From IMG/VR virus record IMGVR_UViG_3300030060_007200: DNA of 64,000 nucleotides. The stretch is one strand, 5' to 3'. Position 1 is the first letter of the stretch, and each line of letters opens with the position of its first letter. The translations under genes and the position numbers were made by a program. Shown here in pieces: positions 4,299 through 57,461 of this stretch. The stretch comes from a virus. The notes below the pieces were generated by a model. That model ran no database searches and was not told the DNA's origin. It saw only the letters and a list, made by a program, of their open reading frames with translations.

Positions 4299-5951
4299 TT
4301 AGCTAGAGAAAGAACCAGATATTGAACCAAAGTTTGATACCCAAGCAGCATCGTTGACAATAACTTTACCGTAGAAGTCGTTACGAACAACTTTCTTCGC
4401 GTATCTTGTCATCACACCTTTTCTTGGAGTAAAGTTTGTTGGGTCATATACTAGTGGAGTCATGATTAACGGAATGTATGGAGCAAATACAGCACCAGTT
4501 TCAAGGAATTGAGTTCCTCTAAATCCAGTTAATACAGTTTCACCTGTCCAGTATGGGTTTTTGTAAATTGTAAATCTGTTCGAAAGTGAACCGATTGCAG
4601 TTACACCCATTGCGAATTGTCCTGCAGTACCATCAGTATTTGCAGAATATCCAGCGATAGACTCAAAGTATGTAGCGATTTGTGGTGAACAAACAACAAA
4701 GTTAGCACCGCCACGCATAGTTGACTGGTGAATTGTGTTTGACATTACTTGTAAAGTAACACCTAATCTAGCAAATGCGTCACCGTAAGTTTCTCCAGCA
4801 GCTGGGTCAGCAGCGTTGAATGTTGCAGAGAATGCAGCAGCGTTGTTAAGCATTGCAAGAATTTCCATATCGATTTCCATTGAAATGTATTCAGATAGCA
4901 TAGACGTTAATTCTGCTTCAGCATCAATTGAATGATAAGCATTTAAGTCTTGTGCAAATTCTGGTGACCATTTAACTTTTAATTTTCTAGTCTTAGCAAC
5001 TAAAGCCTCTTGAGTTAATTGAACATCGATTTCAGGAATTTCTAAATCGCCTGAAGTAGCAGTGATTTCTGGTTGTACAGTATCTTCACCTGGCGTAGCT
5101 CTTTTTAATGCATCAGTAGTATTCGTGTAGTAGAATAAAGTACCACCAGTACCTGGAAGAACCATGTTACCACCTGGAGCAACTGCAGAATTACCAACTC
5201 CCTTAAATGTAACAGTAGTAGTACCGTTATAAGCAGAAGCAGTAAATAAACAGTCAGCTTGAGCAGTAGTAAGACCTTCAGTACCATTTGTAAAGTCTGT
5301 TACTGTAGAAGTAGTCGAACCAGAAATTACATAGAATGAAGATGCTAAATCATAGTCTACGTCAGTTGGAGGAGTTCCAAATGAAAGAGTACCTGCAAGG
5401 TTTAATGCACCTGATGATAAATCAGAAGATGCAGAAACTGCAATTTTGTTTTTCATTATAGAATATCCAGCATTAACACCACCCATGTTAGTGTCCCAGT
5501 TACCGTATAAACCGTTGTTAATATTTGGCGCATCTTTGCCAGAACCACCATATAAAGAATCACCAGTTTCGTGACGTCCTTTTGAATGGTCAGCACCTGA
5601 GCCGCCGTATTTGAAGTCTAACCAGAAAACTAAACCTGAAGGCAAGTTCATTGGTTGTACGCTGACAAATTCCTTTGCAGAAATTTCAGCAAAGATTCTT
5701 CTAACTAATGGAAGAGCCACACCATTCCAGTTTTCTCTATTAGTACCAGTATCGATACTGTTAGCTTCTGAAATAAGTTGCTTAGCTTGGTTTTCTAAAA
5801 GAATCGCAGTGTTGTGCTTGTTGTACTCCTCAGAGATTCCTTCTAAAAGACCAGTCTTTTCCCATTTAGTTACAAGACCTCTAGTTTCGTTTCTCTGTGC
5901 TCTGAATTGAGCTTGAGAATCTTGTAATAAATCGTTGATTTGTGTTGACAT
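4299..5951 (-). CDS. Major capsid protein (T4 gp23-like)
   Basis: ILLENQ, PLVRR, VSVQPMNLPSG, TRKLKVKWSPEFAQDLNAYH, YIPL and PRKGVMTRY motifs. Confidence 0.97.
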   Translation of the reverse strand: MSTQINDLLQDSQAQFRAQRNETRGLVTKWEKTGLLEGISEEYNKHNTAILLENQAKQLISEANSIDTGTNRENWNGVALPLVRRIFAEISAKEFVSVQPMNLPSGLVFWLDFKYGGSGADHSKGRHETGDSLYGGSGKDAPNINNGLYGNWDTNMGGVNAGYSIMKNKIAVSASSDLSSGALNLAGTLSFGTPPTDVDYDLASSFYVISGSTTSTVTDFTNGTEGLTTAQADCLFTASAYNGTTTVTFKGVGNSAVAPGGNMVLPGTGGTLFYYTNTTDALKRATPGEDTVQPEITATSGDLEIPEIDVQLTQEALVAKTRKLKVKWSPEFAQDLNAYHSIDAEAELTSMLSEYISMEIDMEILAMLNNAAAFSATFNAADPAAGETYGDAFARLGVTLQVMSNTIHQSTMRGGANFVVCSPQIATYFESIAGYSANTDGTAGQFAMGVTAIGSLSNRFTIYKNPYWTGETVLTGFRGTQFLETGAVFAPYIPLIMTPLVYDPTNFTPRKGVMTRYAKKVVRNDFYGKVIVNDAAWVSNFGSISGSFSS

Positions 5952-5985: not shown

Positions 5986-6969
5986 TTATTTTAATCCTGC
6001 CAACCTTTGCATTCTTGACGCGAAGGTGTTTGATTCAACAATAACATCTTTCGATGGTTTTGTAGAACCGATAGTTTTTGATGCGAAGCTTTCGTTAACT
6101 CTTTTCTTTGGAGTATAATTCGTGATTGATTCAGCCAAAGTAGTGTATACTAATTTAACCTCTCTTACAGAATTTGCTCTATCGAAAGTTTCGATAACTT
6201 TCATCTTTTGTGATTCAGACAATGAATTGCTTCTGAATAATTTGTTAGAGTAAAGTAGTTTTGAATTTAACAAATTAACCTCATTGATTTTACCTTTTAA
6301 GTACTTGATTACTTTATAAGCTTCTTCCAATTCAGTTTCTGTTTTTTCATCTTCAGTCTCTTCAACTTCAGTTTCTTCCATTTCGTCTTCTTCTCTTAAT
6401 GCGTTAATTATCTCGTCCAAATCCATTTCGTCCACATCATCTTCTTCGTCCAAAGGTTCTGCATCGTTTTCACCACCGTCTACTGGCTTCTCATTAGCAC
6501 CAGGGTCCTCAGCTCCATCTTTAGAGTTGATATCACCTGTTTCTTGAGAGTCAGCACCTAGGTCAGCGTCAACCTCTGCTTCTTCTTCTTCCAATTCTTT
6601 AATGATTTCTTCCAATTCAGCGTCTGTCTCGTCCATGTCCATTTCATCAGTAGTTTCTTCAACTTCTGTTTCATCGTATGTTTCTTCCATGTCCATTTCT
6701 GTTTTCTCATCTTCAGTTTCTTCAACTTCAGTTTCTTCCACGTCAGTTTCTTCTACCTCAGTTTCATCAGTGGCCATAGCCATTTCTGTTGCTTCAGCAT
6801 CAGTTTCTTCCATGTCGTCTTCATCCATTTCTTCTGCGATTTTGTTAGACAGCATTGATTGTAATTTTGGAGTGAATGCTTCTTCTAGAGCTAATTTAGC
6901 ATTTGCAATTGCAGTTGAACGAACCGCCTTTGCGTCAGCAATAGCCTCTTTTAATAAGTCTTTTGACAT
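5986..6969 (-). CDS. Prohead scaffold/core protein (gp22-like)
   Basis: Very acidic centre, coiled coil and C-terminal RMQRLAGL; directly upstream of the capsid gene. Confidence 0.85.
   Translation of the reverse strand: MSKDLLKEAIADAKAVRSTAIANAKLALEEAFTPKLQSMLSNKIAEEMDEDDMEETDAEATEMAMATDETEVEETDVEETEVEETEDEKTEMDMEETYDETEVEETTDEMDMDETDAELEEIIKELEEEEAEVDADLGADSQETGDINSKDGAEDPGANEKPVDGGENDAEPLDEEDDVDEMDLDEIINALREEDEMEETEVEETEDEKTETELEEAYKVIKYLKGKINEVNLLNSKLLYSNKLFRSNSLSESQKMKVIETFDRANSVREVKLVYTTLAESITNYTPKKRVNESFASKTIGSTKPSKDVIVESNTFASRMQRLAGLK
6340..6830 (-). repeat. Low-complexity acidic E-T-E-V-E-E-T-E repeats in the scaffold gene
   Basis: ETEVEETE/DVEETE units; TEVEETEDEKTE occurs twice (around 6340-6380 and 6695-6735). 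Confidence 0.7.
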
Positions 6970-7120
6970 TATTTTTCTCCTTTAATAAATTGTTCTGGAA
7001 ATAAGGCTATTAGGAGCCTTAATAGGTATTATATACTATATGCTGTATTATATTGAAAATAATACTTTTTGTGCATATCTAATTTTCTTATATAAATATA
7101 TATGTAAATACCGAAAAACT

Positions 7121-7144
7121 AAAAAAGAGCTTAAAAAAGCTCTT
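7121..7144 (-). terminator. Intrinsic terminator after bS21
   Basis: Minus strand AAGAGCUU-UUUU-AAGCUCUU followed by a U-run. Confidence 0.75.
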
Positions 7145-7166
7145 CTTTATTAAAATTTCTTAGATT

Positions 7167-7511
7167 TTATTGGGCACCTCCTTTCGTCATCGCCATCCAT
7201 ACATATCCTTTATCATTCATAGCCTCAATTCTAGAATGATACTGTTGTTTTCTTACAGCATCCTCTTTTTGTTTTCTTCGTATTGCGCTAGGTTTGATAT
7301 ACTCCTTTTTGCTTTTGTATCTCATAATCTTTTCAGAATCTTTTAATTGACGTTTGAGATATTTCATTGCTCTTTCCAATGAATACGTACTTGAATCTGG
7401 TACCTTAACTCCTTCAGGACAGCCTTCTAAATAAAAGTCGTGTCTTCCAAAGCTTTTCTTTCTAAAAGACTTTTTCTTAAAGTCCTTTTTATAGTTCTGT
7501 TTGTGCTTCAT
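7167..7511 (-). CDS. rpsU: Phage-encoded 30S ribosomal protein bS21 with N- and C-terminal extensions
   Basis: Core GVKV...SLERAMKYLKRQLKDSEKIMRYKSKKEYIKPSAIRRKQK matches the bS21 pattern (ExAL+xfKR...YxKPS). Confidence 0.88.
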   Translation of the reverse strand: MKHKQNYKKDFKKKSFRKKSFGRHDFYLEGCPEGVKVPDSSTYSLERAMKYLKRQLKDSEKIMRYKSKKEYIKPSAIRRKQKEDAVRKQQYHSRIEAMNDKGYVWMAMTKGGAQ

Positions 7512-7544
7512 GTAATATTTTTTAGCGTTAAACTTAATTTATAT

Positions 7545-7592
7545 CTAATATAATAAAAAAATCCGATATATAAAAACATATACCGGACTTTT
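7545..7592 (-). promoter_or_regulatory. Terminator hairpin overlapping a host-type promoter in front of bS21
   Basis: Minus strand UCCGGUAUAU/AUAUAUCGGA hairpin plus U-run, then TATTATATTAG. Same TCG...TATATTAG layout as the early-region promoters. Confidence 0.6.
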
Positions 7593-7609
7593 TACAATTT
7601 TATTATTTT

Positions 7610-8689
7610 TTATGATTCTGATGCAGATTTCCAAGCCGCTGCAGATGGTGCGCCTTTTGCTCCTTTCTTTCTCATCTTCTTACCAGATTTTCTTCTTTTA
7701 TGGATATTAGCCCACAATCCAGGATTTTTCTTTTCATCGATAAGACCTTCTCTTACAATATCTCTGAAATTTTTGCTATCGGTAACTATCTTTGATTTTT
7801 TAATTATCTCTTGATAATATCCTTTTACCTCTCCAGCTCTTGATGCAACATAATCTTTTCTCCAATTACCAAGTCTCTCATCACCTTTTGCAGCGTCGAT
7901 TTCTTTTTCGTATTCTGCAGCATCTCTTACATAATTTTCATAAGCTCTAACCATATTACCATAAGCGTTAGCTATTGTTTGGTATGAATCCCAACCGTTA
8001 TTGTATTTACCTTTCTTTAGCATTTGTGTATTATAGTCAAATACTTTAGAAACAATAGTTGTTGCTTCATCTAACAATTTCTTTAGTGCGTCAGGACCTT
8101 TGGCCAATACTTTAGCTTGCAATGCTTTTTTATACCTTTTCATATTTTGGTCAACAACTTCTTTATTTTTCATAAGTGCCGTTGCACCTTGCTTTGCAGC
8201 TACCCTTGCAGCTTGTTTATCTTTTGCTGAAGGTATATCGGATAAAGCAATGCTAATTACTCTGTCAGCTACCTCGTTATATCTCTTGTAATTGTCAAGC
8301 TTTTTACCTTGACTACCAATTTTAGCATTTGCATCTCTCCATCTTTGTTTTGGCCAGTACATAGATTTTTTACCTATTGTAATACCTATAATACCTGGTT
8401 GGAGTGAACCGTATTCATATCCTTGTTTGTATGGATTTTCTTTTCTGGTGTCTACAATAAAAATATTCATGTGGTCATTAGAAGGGTTTGCGCCGTCTTT
8501 TACCATAGAATCTTCTACATCTGACCAAGCCATTCCTTTAGACTTTGCAGTCACATCAAAGAATTTTCTGTCCCTTGAATCCATAAGCTTGAAAAGATTT
8601 GTAATTTTAGATGATGCAAATTTTTCTGAGATTAAAGATTTCATTATCTCTTCTCTAATCATTTTTCTTAATTTAGATTCTTTGCTCAT
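7610..8689 (-). CDS. Probable internal head protein
   Basis: N-terminal KLRKMIREEI...LISE leader, basic C-terminal GLWANIH...KGAP module after LIDE; located in the head cluster. Confidence 0.55.
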   Translation of the reverse strand: MSKESKLRKMIREEIMKSLISEKFASSKITNLFKLMDSRDRKFFDVTAKSKGMAWSDVEDSMVKDGANPSNDHMNIFIVDTRKENPYKQGYEYGSLQPGIIGITIGKKSMYWPKQRWRDANAKIGSQGKKLDNYKRYNEVADRVISIALSDIPSAKDKQAARVAAKQGATALMKNKEVVDQNMKRYKKALQAKVLAKGPDALKKLLDEATTIVSKVFDYNTQMLKKGKYNNGWDSYQTIANAYGNMVRAYENYVRDAAEYEKEIDAAKGDERLGNWRKDYVASRAGEVKGYYQEIIKKSKIVTDSKNFRDIVREGLIDEKKNPGLWANIHKRRKSGKKMRKKGAKGAPSAAAWKSASES

Positions 8690-8691
8690 GT

Positions 8692-9753
8692 TTATACTCC
8701 AATCTTTGAATATGTTAACATATCGTTAATTGCCTTAAGTGCTTTTTTCTTTGCAGATTCAAATTCTTTTCCGTATCTTCCTGAACCTCCACCTTTTTTG
8801 GCATTTGATACCATTTTCATTATATCACCAATTTGCTTTGTTTCTTTAGAAGATTTCATTTTAGGTGCAGCTTCTGTTCTAAGATTAAGTCCTATACCTG
8901 GAGCTGATATAACATTTGATAAACCTTCGAATGCTTCATTTACAAGTTTATTAAATTTATCTGGTCTTTTACCTTCGTATCTTAAATCAAACATTAAATC
9001 TTGTATTTTTTTAGATGTAGCATTACCACCAGCTTTTTCAATTGCACGTCTAGCTTTCACAGCATTTTTAGCCAAAATTACATAATGTCCTTTTTTACCT
9101 TTAACATATCTATCAGCTTGAATTTTAGAGCCAGCTGGCCTTGAATTACCTCTTGGGTCAATTACTACATAAGATTCATTAACCGCTCCTTCATTTTTAC
9201 CTTTGTGTTTTTTATCTATAAGGTTAAAAAATTCTTTTTTCTTTTCGTCATCTAAATCTGCAGGTGAGTCTGCTCCAAATTTAGCCAATACAGCCTTGAA
9301 TAATTTTTGATATTTTTCTTGAGCCTCTGATTCGTCCACAGTTTCTTCTGTATGTCCTGGTTCATGAACTTCTTTTATTTCATAGTACTTACCAAGTTTT
9401 CCACCTATATCTTCAAATACAGATTCTAATCTTTGTTGTAGTGTAGATATTTCTTTGAATGTATTTTCAAATACTTTTACAGATTCTCCTATAGATTTTG
9501 TATCTCTTTTTACAGATACTGCATCGAACCAATCAGCAGTTTCTTCTATTGCCATTCTGCTAGCGTTTTCTGCCAATTTTTTAATATTTTCTACAAGCTC
9601 AGTTATTTCTTGTGTTTTATATACGTTTTGTCCTAACTCGTTAAATTTAGAAACAGCCTCTAGTGTTTGAGCCTTTTCCTCTTCAGTCATTCTTTTATTT
9701 TCAGTTGACTCGTTTAAGGAATGCTTCCAATTTCTAATATCAAATTTACTCAT
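8692..9753 (-). CDS. Probable internal head/core protein
   Basis: Start moved to MSKFDIRN (AGGAG at 9762-9766). Several [LV]NE-type sites separate modules. Confidence 0.55.
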   Translation of the reverse strand: MSKFDIRNWKHSLNESTENKRMTEEEKAQTLEAVSKFNELGQNVYKTQEITELVENIKKLAENASRMAIEETADWFDAVSVKRDTKSIGESVKVFENTFKEISTLQQRLESVFEDIGGKLGKYYEIKEVHEPGHTEETVDESEAQEKYQKLFKAVLAKFGADSPADLDDEKKKEFFNLIDKKHKGKNEGAVNESYVVIDPRGNSRPAGSKIQADRYVKGKKGHYVILAKNAVKARRAIEKAGGNATSKKIQDLMFDLRYEGKRPDKFNKLVNEAFEGLSNVISAPGIGLNLRTEAAPKMKSSKETKQIGDIMKMVSNAKKGGGSGRYGKEFESAKKKALKAINDMLTYSKIGV

Positions 9754-9754
9754 T

Positions 9755-10387
9755 TTATTTGCTCCTTGTTGGTAATGAACATTTGCATGCCAAATCGCAT
9801 AGCATTTCATTTATTATATTATTTACCTTGTCGTATTTATTTATATAAATATCATTGACAGATTCGTTTATTGGTCTCATGAACGCTCCATGCGTAGAAG
9901 GATTTGATACAAAATCCCAACAAACTAATTCAAAATCAGATTGAACTTCCATTGTACCATCCTCTGATAATTGCTTGACAGAACCAAGACCTCTTGAAGA
10001 TATACCAAGCTTAACTCCTGATTTTAATAATTCTTTAAGTATGTTTCCAGCTGGTGTACCTAGTACCTCTACAGTACCCATTACATCGTCACCTTTCCAC
10101 CACACCTTCTTTATATTATGAGATACATTTTGAAGATTAACAACAGACGATTCCGGATGGTCTAGTTCGCCAAGAGCACGATTTTCTGCTATCTGCACTT
10201 GTGAGTATTGTTTAACTTCTCTCATTAAAATTTCTTTTGGATATACTCGACCGTTTTGATTTTTTGCTCCAGCTCTTTGTAGTATACCTGTTACAATTAC
10301 ACGGCCATTATTTTGTTGTTCAGACTCAACTATCATTTGTGGAGAAATATCAAATGTTGTATAGTCTATTAGTACTTGTTTTGACAT
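9755..10387 (-). CDS. Prohead protease (gp21-like)
   Basis: NQNGRVYP, ALGELDHP, GISSRGLGS and WDFVSNPS motifs. Confidence 0.95.
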   Translation of the reverse strand: MSKQVLIDYTTFDISPQMIVESEQQNNGRVIVTGILQRAGAKNQNGRVYPKEILMREVKQYSQVQIAENRALGELDHPESSVVNLQNVSHNIKKVWWKGDDVMGTVEVLGTPAGNILKELLKSGVKLGISSRGLGSVKQLSEDGTMEVQSDFELVCWDFVSNPSTHGAFMRPINESVNDIYINKYDKVNNIINEMLCDLACKCSLPTRSK

Positions 10388-33600: not shown

Positions 33601-33824
33601 GTTGTAAGCTTTATTAGCTCAGGTGATATATCAGTTTTGCTATGTACAATATCACCTCCTACATATACTATCGAGTTTTTAGGCAGCCTATCTACCTGTT
33701 TATATAATTGCCTAAATACTTTTCTATATTCTTTATGTCGCTGATAATTTCTTATATGTATATCCGCAACGTGTAATACTTTTTCTAGCTTTTCAAACCC
33801 TACATCAATTTTATTAAAGTCCAA
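30678..33824 (-). CDS. Fused Mre11/SbcD (gp47) phosphoesterase and Rad50/SbcC (gp46) ATPase
   Basis: DIH, GD, GNHD, HG and GDIH motifs; then PNHAGKS, coiled coil with CKYC hook, TSGME and IDEGFG. Confidence 0.93.
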   Translation of the reverse strand: MDFNKIDVGFEKLEKVLHVADIHIRNYQRHKEYRKVFRQLYKQVDRLPKNSIVYVGGDIVHSKTDISPELIKLTTEFLKNLADRRHTIVITGNHDANLNNSSRLDSLSPMIESLAHPQLHYLKDSAVHEIAGTHFVVFSIFDDPQTFIKASSFDAETKVALFHGALDMSYTDTGYKVESDDLKISMFDGYDMVMLGDIHKRQFYNKDKTILQVGSLIQQNFGESFENHGCAIWNVDTRKADFVDFENVHGFYTIDVKNGKLPNIDNIPKYPRVRIRTENTTQAQLKTIIKEIKSKCRTTDIVIIKNDKLNAQNKTTRSITRDIRDVQYQNELLEEYIGANHPADDETIRRIKNINTELNKSLSTIEVSRGVRWLPKKFEFSNMFSYGEDNVIDFSKLRDVIGIFAPNHAGKSAILDAIMFNVFHKCSRTKSASDVLNNKKSNFYSKLNFEIDGVDYFIERRGKKEKSGHVRVDVDFWMIGEDDNPISLNGEQRTQTDKNIRGYLGLYNDFVLTSMSVQNNNTGFIDQSQVEKKDLLSQFLDITVFEELYQLANEEIKEVQILLKNFGKTDYSQQLIDEEDNLLEYESVYAQLNDTKIKIQKKYSKKEEQIHNKVKELKNITVENDIETLEQKKIRREREIVFNNEKLDKYKKYKKDNKVKMSDINSKMSKINIDELKIKKSVLDLEKENNSRLVKDIEVKKVSVRNKLDLISKLDTHEYDPNCKYCCNNEFVKAADKAKIELEEDKVIVKKLLQDKSVSDNILLESIEVEKLIGAYNKLNSEKVQISQYNSEIIIKSEQRKSDLRASKTDLRGVERDIEKYYKNKETIKANEKINTIIESLEIEKSNIKLELDEISSKIQKAYSNVSITQQNITHIKTTISDAHELELKLKSYEYYLDAIRRDGIPYEIIAETLPYLEEEINNTLSQIVGFEIEFDVDGKNILTYIKYGNDNKWPLELTSGMEKFISSLAIRVALIKISNLPRPNFLAIDEGFGNLDSENINSISMLFDYLKTEFDFVVIISHIDIMKDMVGGLIEISRSKGLSRVIV

Positions 33825-34725
33825 ATTTCATCTCCAACAGCTTTGCAAAATCTACGGTTTTAGAATTAGATATTAAATCATTTATTTTTTTATGACCTAA
33901 TGTACTTGGGTCTTCACCGTCATTCATTTCTATTATTCTTACATCTATATTTTCTGATTGTAAATATTCACATAGTTTCACTGCTTCATTTTTTGCATCA
34001 TTATCTAAAACTATGTTTACTCTTTTTACATTTCTTTCTTTTATTTTCATTTTCAAAGATTTTGGCATAAACTTACCAAATATAGGAATTGAGTTTTCTC
34101 CTATAGCTATTGCATCAAAAACACCTTCGCAAATATTTATATCCTCATTCCAGTTTACCAAAAGCTCAAAACCTATTACGTCTTTAGAAGTTTTAGGATT
34201 TTTATGCTTAAAATCTGTATCGTAATAAGACCTTCCTACAAAATAATTTAGTATACCTCTATCATCATAACTAGGTATTATTACCATACCGCTATATTCT
34301 CCAGATTCACAATATCCTATATTATATCTTAACACATCTGTTTTTGTTATACCTCTTGACCTTAAATATTTTGCTGCATTTCTAAATTCAGGACTGTTTC
34401 TGTTTCCTGATATAAGAGGTATAAAACTCATAGGTAAAGAAACATGCTCCTCAACCTTTGATTTATCTGTATTGTGTCTAACGCCTGTTAATGTATTCAG
34501 CTCTTGTATTTTTCCTAATGCGCCAACCTTTCTAAATATACGTTCAGCACCTATACCTTTAATACCGCAAACCCAACAGTGCCATTTCTGAGTAATTATA
34601 TTTATTACTAATTTCTTTTTATGGTGATTGCAATAAGGACATGAAAACGTTGCCTCATTACCACTTGTCATGGATTTACCTAATACATTCTCAAACAAAT
34701 TGAGTAAACGTCTACTTTTATTCAT
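33814..34725 (-). CDS. DNA primase (Zn ribbon plus TOPRIM)
   Basis: CPYC...HCWVC, YLRSRG, CEGVFD, LDND and EDP motifs. Confidence 0.92.
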   Translation of the reverse strand: MNKSRRLLNLFENVLGKSMTSGNEATFSCPYCNHHKKKLVINIITQKWHCWVCGIKGIGAERIFRKVGALGKIQELNTLTGVRHNTDKSKVEEHVSLPMSFIPLISGNRNSPEFRNAAKYLRSRGITKTDVLRYNIGYCESGEYSGMVIIPSYDDRGILNYFVGRSYYDTDFKHKNPKTSKDVIGFELLVNWNEDINICEGVFDAIAIGENSIPIFGKFMPKSLKMKIKERNVKRVNIVLDNDAKNEAVKLCEYLQSENIDVRIIEMNDGEDPSTLGHKKINDLISNSKTVDFAKLLEMKFGL

Positions 34726-34755
34726 GTATATAATATAACAAATATTTGTGAATTA

Positions 34756-56558: not shown

Positions 56559-56792
56559 CCTCTAACCTCCGAAGCTTATACGGTGTGCTTCTTCTACCGT
56601 TGGTTTAGGGTGCCTTATCAGGCAGCCATCGCCATTTCAACTTGTGCGCCAGTTATGCGTTGAACTTCCTTATATCCTTTTCACCGTGTCAAATCCAGTC
56701 ACCCCCATGTTTTAACCTAAATCTTCTTGTGGAGGTGGAGGGTATCGAACCCTCGTCCAACAATGCAGCTAATATAAGTAATAGCGTTCAAA
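56559..56792 (-). ncRNA. ssrA: Circularly permuted (two-piece) tmRNA; tag (A)GAQVEMAMAA
   Basis: Acceptor piece GGAC-GAGGG-UUCGAUA-CCCUC-CACCUCC-A (56758-56730) lies upstream of the 5' strand GGGGGUG-ACUGGAUUUGAC (from 56706). G3-U70 pair present; tag ORF at 56650-56618. Confidence 0.92.
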
Positions 56793-57300: not shown

Positions 57301-57461
57301 GTTTTATTTTTTTTAGCAAATTATGTCTACTCTTTTACATTTAGGATTTTCGACTTTCTCCTTAGAATTATCTAATATATTATTTTAATTTATTAGTTAA
57401 TTATTATATTAGTATACTAATTATTAGTATTATTAGTAATTACTATTATTAGTTTTTTACT

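Follow-up and report, generated by a model that had tools for sequence, protein, structure and literature searches.

Background

Of the ribosomal proteins that phages encode, bS21 is by far the commonest, and the locus analysed here raises the question of why a phage should carry its own copy and whether such a copy can change the way in which the host ribosome chooses its start sites. In Flavobacterium johnsoniae, the proteins bS21, bS18 and bS6 sequester the anti-Shine-Dalgarno (anti-SD) sequence, with Tyr54 of bS21 stacking on A1534 (Jha et al. 2021, PMC7797042). Ribosomes that lack bS21 do read Shine-Dalgarno (SD) sequences, and the host gene rpsU carries an extended SD that these bS21-lacking ribosomes read (McNutt et al. 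2023, PMC9976891). Over the last few years, phage copies of the protein have been described as well. In freshwater Bacteroidetes myoviruses, bS21 lies in the capsid module and is transcribed with the late genes; 61 of 61 of these proteins have Tyr54 or another aromatic residue at that position, and the authors take this to mean an anti-SD that remains blocked (Chen et al. 2022, ISME Commun, PMC9723584). The bS21 of Pelagibacter phage HTVC008M enters E. coli ribosomes (Mizuno et al. 2019, PMC6375957), and swapping the bS21 paralogues of Francisella changes the messages that are translated (PMC9578407). In our search of the literature, we found no paper linking phage bS21 to SD use.

Here we analyse a 64,000-nucleotide stretch of viral DNA, IMG/VR record IMGVR_UViG_3300030060_007200, which we call the window. 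The phage is T4-like and marine, and it probably infects bacteria of the Flavobacteria type. A preliminary description of it, made from the letters alone, had singled out an insulated bS21 gene without an SD among capsid genes with strong ones, and had proposed that its product frees the anti-SD of the host. We find the insulated gene to be conserved among relatives and SD use to track the presence of bS21. That we are dealing with a self-contained cassette expressing a bS21 variant that unlocks the anti-SD is thus a plausible, unproven reading, in which our confidence falls a little short of even.

Results

The bS21 gene and its surroundings

The window has a G+C content of 33.9%, bears almost every gene on the minus strand, and carries a T4-type head module. 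The genes and protein parts needed here are:

9755-10387, prohead protease
7167-7511, minus strand, bS21 homologue of 114 aa (open reading frame, PF01165 match just under the cut-off, and family profile)
5986-6969, acidic scaffold protein
4299-5951, Gp23 capsid protein
bS21 residues 1-33, basic N-extension
bS21 residues 34-97, core, with the KPS hinge at 73-75 and Arg87
bS21 residues 98-114, C-extension, with invariant Trp105

The order of protease, two genes, bS21, scaffold and capsid is identical in the related loci L004 and L009-L012, and in the window bS21 lies on the strand of its structural neighbours. Three records come nearest by capsid protein, each at about 46% identity: Flavobacterium phage immuto, Microcystis phage Mel-JY01 and an uncultured phage of 484 kb. 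Elsewhere, the window holds a permuted two-piece tmRNA (RF04321, 67 bits) at 56618-56791 on the minus strand, behind a late motif, and near it a DUF805b RNA motif (37.8 bits, 57324-57363, minus strand).

Against the Ribosomal_S21 family PF01165, the window protein scores 24.9 bits (E 1.7e-5; cut-off 27 bits), and against TIGR00030 it scores 25.1 bits (E about 1e-5; cut-off 28.95). Most of its relatives have a precomputed PF01165 match. A profile built from 35 members of the window-type family and run against the chains of the PDB gave only bS21 chains as its top matches, the best being that of P. gingivalis (9i5v, 1.3e-7) and the fifth that of F. johnsoniae (7jil, 3.3e-6). The family comprises 44 metagenomic proteins, mostly of 113-145 aa and in part from Tara Oceans samples. 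Its alignment has 18 invariant positions spread over the N-extension (F16, K18, R23, F26 and G30), the core and the C-extension (Trp105), and it features a DFY-EG-P-GV block that is absent from cellular bS21. An AlphaFold model (pLDDT 78) places helices at 42-66 and 74-100, joined through K73-P74-S75, and adds a small hairpin at the C-terminus; Foldseek returned no match in the PDB, a search that is uninformative for so extended a fold. The phage-type protein occurs in none of the 185,579 bacterial and archaeal genomes scanned, which therefore offered no hint of a prophage or host; PHROGs has no family for it, and tblastn against 50,697 phage records returned nothing at 1e-5 and, at E below 10, weak matches only, adjoining the capsid genes of Mel-JY01 and LR756508.

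In both profile and single-sequence alignments to the F. johnsoniae chain (7jil_z), window residue n+33 pairs with host residue n without a gap, so the tyrosine that masks the anti-SD in F. johnsoniae faces Arg87 of the phage protein, as it does in the ungapped alignment to the P. gingivalis chain (9i5v_9). The loss of Tyr54 given in the preliminary description is therefore confirmed, and across the window-type family the position is Arg or Ala and aromatic in no member. One helical turn past Arg87, Tyr91 of the window lies opposite Leu58 of F. johnsoniae. As for the two extensions, the N-terminal one has the 33 residues expected, and the C-terminal one, put at about 20, comes to 17.

Two further features of this protein and its gene may be recorded. 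The best single-sequence match in the PDB is a GTF2I repeat (1q60_A, E 0.0025; window 7392-7454, residues 20-60), which has DFY-EG-PEGV and the next helix in common with the N-extension where this is conserved, and may be a chance match. In the message, the last bS21 codons (7175-7184) are AAAGGAGGTG, a stretch complementary to the 16S 3' tail at all 10 nt; L004 lacks this stretch, which is therefore probably due to chance.

Anatomy of the cassette

Reading along the minus strand, from the operon upstream of bS21 to the start of the scaffold gene, the elements are:

9844..9852, minus strand, late-promoter motif heading a two-gene operon (8692-9810 and 7610-8689)
7556..7593, minus strand, predicted upstream terminator hairpin (A-run, 17-pair stem, T-run), closing the upstream late operon
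7546..7570, minus strand, recurring promoter-like motif: TATATC (7570-7565), 11 nt, then TTATATTA (7553-7546)
7512..7545, minus strand, A-rich leader of 34 nt without an SD, holding GTTTAAC at 7533-7527
7120..7149, minus strand, predicted downstream terminator hairpin and T-run
7091..7099, minus strand, late-promoter motif ATATTTATA, putative restart into the scaffold and capsid genes
7003..7020, minus strand, scaffold-gene leader stem-loop followed by ATTTCCA, with compensatory changes in five relatives
6977..6980, minus strand, GGAG core of the strong scaffold-gene SD (AAAGGAG)

Both hairpins that had been noticed by eye, at 7562-7588 and 7121-7144, were recovered as minus-strand terminator-like sites (7593..7556 and 7149..7120) in a 3.2-kb region where four such sites were found and 1.3 expected. 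Of the short A/T-rich late motif ATATTTATA there are 20 copies where 4.2 would be expected; 18 stand on the coding strand, and the copies have an intergenic bias, the properties by which T4-type late promoters are recognized. It is found nowhere within 7512-7609, and transcription would restart from it 20 nt past the second terminator. The contrast drawn earlier between the leader of bS21 and those of its neighbours also holds: pairing with the anti-SD has an energy of +1.9 kcal/mol for the bS21 leader against -8.8 for the scaffold gene and -8.2 for the capsid gene. In 9 of the 11 loci with the long type of bS21, GTTTAAC stands in the leader 10-20 nt before the ATG, with near variants in L136 and L010.

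The sequence before bS21 that had been called an early-type promoter (TCGG...TATATTAG) is a real recurring motif; the word early reflects its sharing with replication genes. Its general form is TATRTC-N11-TT(G/A)TTATATTA, in which TTATATTA contains a -10-like TATATT, and the TG of the TGnTATATT of the relatives is replaced by TA in the window. The same spacing is found in L001 before replication and repair genes, namely a DNA polymerase-like gene, UvdE and an Hc1-gp32-recA operon, where the motif often abuts the ATG. In its geometry the motif matches an ordinary promoter of the extended -10 kind and not the Bacteroidota -33/-7 type, which counts against the switch reading. We also tried to read the motif as a Bacteroidota promoter with -33 TTTG and -7 TAnnTTTG and rejected this, the TTTG not being conserved in the window itself; the several copies that abut an ATG fit a -10 geometry with a leaderless start, and not -33/-7. 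Another copy, TTTGTTATATTA, lies at 34731-34742 on the minus strand before the gene at 33814-34725, with others in L001 at 2099 and 5485; its TATATT falls at -12..-7 of the A of the ATG, which implies leaderless messages for several genes.

Conservation of the layout

The cassette layout is retained in 10 loci (the window's relatives being L004, L009, L010, L011, L012, L134, L136, L138 and L143), at protein identities as low as about 46%. The hairpin upstream of bS21 plays a double part, since the TATATC box of the bS21 promoter lies within its 3' arm, and in every conserved locus TATRTC stands in that arm 11 nt before TTATATTA. Over 10 loci, 5 of its 16 pairs show compensatory double changes. 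Downstream of bS21, each of the 11 loci has a predicted terminator at the corresponding place, with a GC-containing stem of its own and a T-run; covariation was counted for the upstream hairpin, the downstream stems being too divergent in sequence to align for a count. In the relatives, a late motif usually comes next after the downstream terminator. In L004, whose bS21 is 70% identical, the flanks are almost base-for-base the same, compared with about 78% identity in the coding sequence. An insulated, SD-less unit behind a non-late type of promoter, as first described from the window alone, is thus a conserved arrangement with covariation.

In L001 a window-type bS21 (58% identical) lies instead inside a recA/DnaB replication module, again without an SD, and the occurrence of bS21 under the non-late motif class in two independent arrangements supports the view that it is not a late-promoter gene. 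Between a DUF4494 gene and bS21 of this locus, at 9866-9937 on the plus strand, there is a sub-threshold match to an HDV-like ribozyme (RF02682, 24.3 bits against a cut-off of 44, over the full model length), so the bS21 message there may start at a self-cleavage site.

The host

The evidence on the host comes from clade-mates and from a tmRNA motif, and together these make it very probable, as far as sequence can tell, that the host belongs to the Bacteroidota. A protein of 967 aa that begins with a signal peptide and has, at its very C-terminus, a T9SS sorting domain scoring 45 bits against a cut-off of 23 is encoded by the 104-kb contig L139, whose bS21 is likewise of the long type; the complete 178-kb relative L155 also has such a protein. 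A search of Mel-JY01 for T9SS domains found nothing. The 3' tRNA-like pattern of the window's tmRNA, with three free positions, falls in Bacteroidota in 62 of the 80 matches listed, and the best matches of its 5' piece are also in Bacteroidota; the exact phage 3' sequence is in no genome scanned, and the comparison is one of taxon enrichment. Finally, a cultured Flavobacterium phage is nested within the capsid tree, and the A-rich, SD-less leader of bS21 resembles leaders of that cultured phage.

Shine-Dalgarno use tracks the presence of bS21

Scoring an SD as a 4-nt core at -18..-4, we found one on 46% of the 65 ORFs of the window compared with 12% at random positions; for the virion module alone the fraction is 60%, and for the remainder of the window 24%. 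To look beyond the window, 80 capsid relatives were fetched from IMG/VR and a bS21 profile was run on their stop-to-stop frames. The median SD fraction was 0.60 in the 47 loci with bS21 and 0.22 in the 20 loci that cover the site and are without it (Mann-Whitney p about 1e-8, uncorrected for kinship), and an SD excess of at least 0.25 was seen in 45 of the 47 and in 6 of the 20. The position of the motif is sharper still: in eleven loci with the long type of bS21, 128 of 235 genes have GGAG or GAGG starting at -14..-9, with a peak at -11, compared with 1 of 169 genes in eight loci without bS21. The equally strong SDs in bS21-less relatives that, according to the preliminary description, would speak against the idea were not found, few or no SD sites being present there. 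Flavobacterium phage immuto, for instance, has no bS21 in its 160 kb, and SD motifs precede 4% of its 46 genes, below its own background of 19%. An SD motif is missing before bS21 in 11 of 11 long-type and 7 of 7 Tyr-type loci scored, while about 60% of the neighbouring genes have one.

On the capsid tree, the bS21 state changes about five times, and SD use moved with bS21 in about three of four to five independent pairs and in the opposite direction in none, pairs so few that the association on the tree cannot reach significance. There are exceptions on either side, namely one bS21-less clade with a modest SD excess of 0.16-0.44, and two SD-poor loci with bS21 (L152 at 0.06 and L140 at 0.24). 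Nor are SDs confined to late genes, as had been supposed: in L001, gp32, recA and other replication genes have strong SDs, and in L139 the fraction is 76% in the virion end and 40% elsewhere. Translation of early operons would therefore hang on the proposed switch too.

The clade of Mel-JY01 (L008), with L173, L183, L190, L193-L195, L198 and L207, has a short bS21 rich in Lys and Arg, and half of the bS21 genes of this type have an SD. In this they are unlike the long-type and Tyr-type genes, which may point to a different host or a different wiring.

Loss of Tyr54 is not the whole mechanism

The preliminary description had placed the unlocking in the loss of Tyr54, and this part did not survive comparison. 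Eight related loci have a short bS21 that keeps Tyr, the signature of Bacteroidota, at position 54, and the SD fraction of their neighbours, 24-69% with a median of about 0.6, is as high as that of the Arg/Ala-type loci, so the loss of the tyrosine cannot be the whole mechanism. The clade of the cultured Flavobacterium phage, which has no bS21 and SD fractions of 0-0.3, is sister to these Tyr-type clades. Within the window's own clade, the basal L140 has Tyr54, a length of 94 aa, no flanking hairpins and an SD fraction of 0.24, compared with 0.46-1.0 in the long Arg-type members, which is a single contrast. Judged from these comparisons, Tyr54 is not the discriminating residue; its loss is real in the window family and does not explain the link with SD use.

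Discussion

The arrangement of the locus suggests how such a switch might run. The predicted terminator would halt the upstream late operon, and a promoter of the non-late type would drive bS21; the second terminator would end the bS21 transcript, after which the late promoter would restart transcription for the SD-led scaffold and capsid genes. The SD-less bS21 message should be readable by unmodified Bacteroidota ribosomes with a hidden anti-SD, and its product, with Arg in place of Tyr54 and additions at both termini, would exchange into 30S subunits. The altered subunits could then use the SD sites found 9-14 nt before most virion genes of the phage lineage. As the switch completes, bS21 synthesis would fall because its own message has no SD, the mirror image of the host's rpsU, with its extended SD for ribosomes that have no bS21. 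In its broadest form, that phage bS21 turns SD-blind Bacteroidota ribosomes into SD-reading ones, that a marine and freshwater T4-like lineage uses this to mark its abundant messages, and that the SD-less cassette is a self-limiting trigger, we put the idea forward tentatively, as possible and on balance doubtful. The phage bS21 of Chen et al. (2022) is transcribed alongside late genes, which counts against a switch of this kind.

Other explanations must be weighed against this. An unlikely one, though essentially the published view, is that the phage protein stands in for the host's bS21, either to keep 30S subunits complete or to bias message choice through its altered N-terminal helix after host shut-off, without any effect on the anti-SD. 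It was proposed by Chen et al. (2022, PMC9723584), and it draws support from the many Tyr54-type phage bS21 proteins in sister clades and from the bS21 of F. johnsoniae, which is essential and readily exchanged; it gives no account, however, of a sharp SD peak in bS21-bearing lineages only, though a cultured member infects an SD-blind host, or of the avoidance of an SD by the bS21 gene alone. Rather unlikely, in our judgement, is an indirect link, in which some other phage function frees the anti-SD (for example by removing or destroying the host's bS21, or by targeting bS18/bS6 or the 16S tail through a separate factor) or in which bS21 and SD use are both inherited markers of a few clades. 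The roughly five state changes on the tree, the failure of the residue at position 54 to predict SD use, and the intermediate SD use in one bS21-less clade agree with such a link, but SD use ran opposite to bS21 in no independent pair, and at least three types of bS21 (long Arg/Ala, short Tyr and short Lys/Arg) all have SD-rich loci.

It is improbable that the host lies outside the Bacteroidota or reads SDs anyway, so that an ordinary basic bS21 unlocks nothing and SD use mirrors the host. Aligned S. aureus chains do show Arg or Lys at position 54, the promoter resembles the extended -10 type, and the relative Mel-JY01, whose bS21 gene has an SD, is recorded on Microcystis; set against these are the T9SS cargo protein encoded by a clade-mate that shares this type of bS21, the Bacteroidota-type 3' end of the tmRNA, the Flavobacterium phage in the capsid tree, P. 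gingivalis as the best solved match of the bS21 profile, and a leader like those of the Flavobacterium phage. We consider it very improbable that the protein acts elsewhere than on the ribosome, for instance as a regulator that binds RNA or as a basic protein associated with the head, with the terminators marking a horizontally inserted moron. The cassette does occur at two different genome positions, and the long extensions, the invariant Trp, the DFY-EG-P-GV block foreign to cellular bS21 and the lack of the phage-type protein in 185,579 bacterial and archaeal genomes could be read in that way, but conservation covers the bS21 core, including the KPS hinge and the two helices, the layout is retained with covariation over deep divergence, and a non-late promoter speaks against a packaged head protein.

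Compared with known systems, the locus is closest to the phages of Chen et al. (2022), with which it shares a T4-like capsid module, a bS21 gene between prohead protease and major capsid protein that forms its own transcription unit, hosts in the Bacteroidota (probable here), and the proposal that the phage protein takes the place of host bS21, to the benefit of phage messages. In their phages, however, bS21 lies on the opposite strand, whereas here it is on the same strand and fenced by two terminators; their aromatic position 54 is here Arg (Ala in a subgroup), in a protein with extensions of 33 aa at the N-terminus and 17 aa at the C-terminus; and SD use, outside the scope of that study, was scored here. 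With the bS21 of F. johnsoniae there is a homologous core that aligns without gaps, and for that host it is established that SD recognition is linked to the occupancy of bS21; Tyr54 and the extended SD of rpsU are opposed by Arg87 and an SD-less gene in the phage, which is the opposite wiring. HTVC008M likewise encodes the bS21 of a marine T4-like myovirus, but that protein resembles its host's (54% identity), gave no tblastn match to the window bS21, and goes with a capsid protein only about 30% identical to that of the window. The Francisella paralogues differ from the window in being chromosomal genes of a Gammaproteobacterium, with no phage and no masking of the anti-SD.

If the link between bS21 and SD use is causal, this would be the first virus to change the start-site rule of its host's ribosome, and the very existence of SD sites in phages whose host phylum ignores them would be accounted for. 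The link would further offer a testable, if unproven, reason for phages to encode bS21. The locus itself adds a bS21 family without the masking tyrosine, a conserved wiring that predicts both order and feedback and runs from a terminator over a non-late promoter and an SD-less leader to a second terminator and a late promoter, and a warning that Tyr54 is not the residue that discriminates.

The scaffold-gene leader

The stem-loop in the leader of the scaffold gene takes the forms AAGGCT/AGCCTT, AAGGTT/AACCTT, AAGGAT/ATCCTT, AAGATT/AATCTT and AAGAAT/ATTCTT among the window, L004, L009, L010, L011 and L012, and these changes are compensatory. After it comes ATTTCCA, which is invariant and stands some 30 nt ahead of the SD. 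The stem-loop may serve the processing, stability or translation of the scaffold and capsid message, the most abundant of the late messages.
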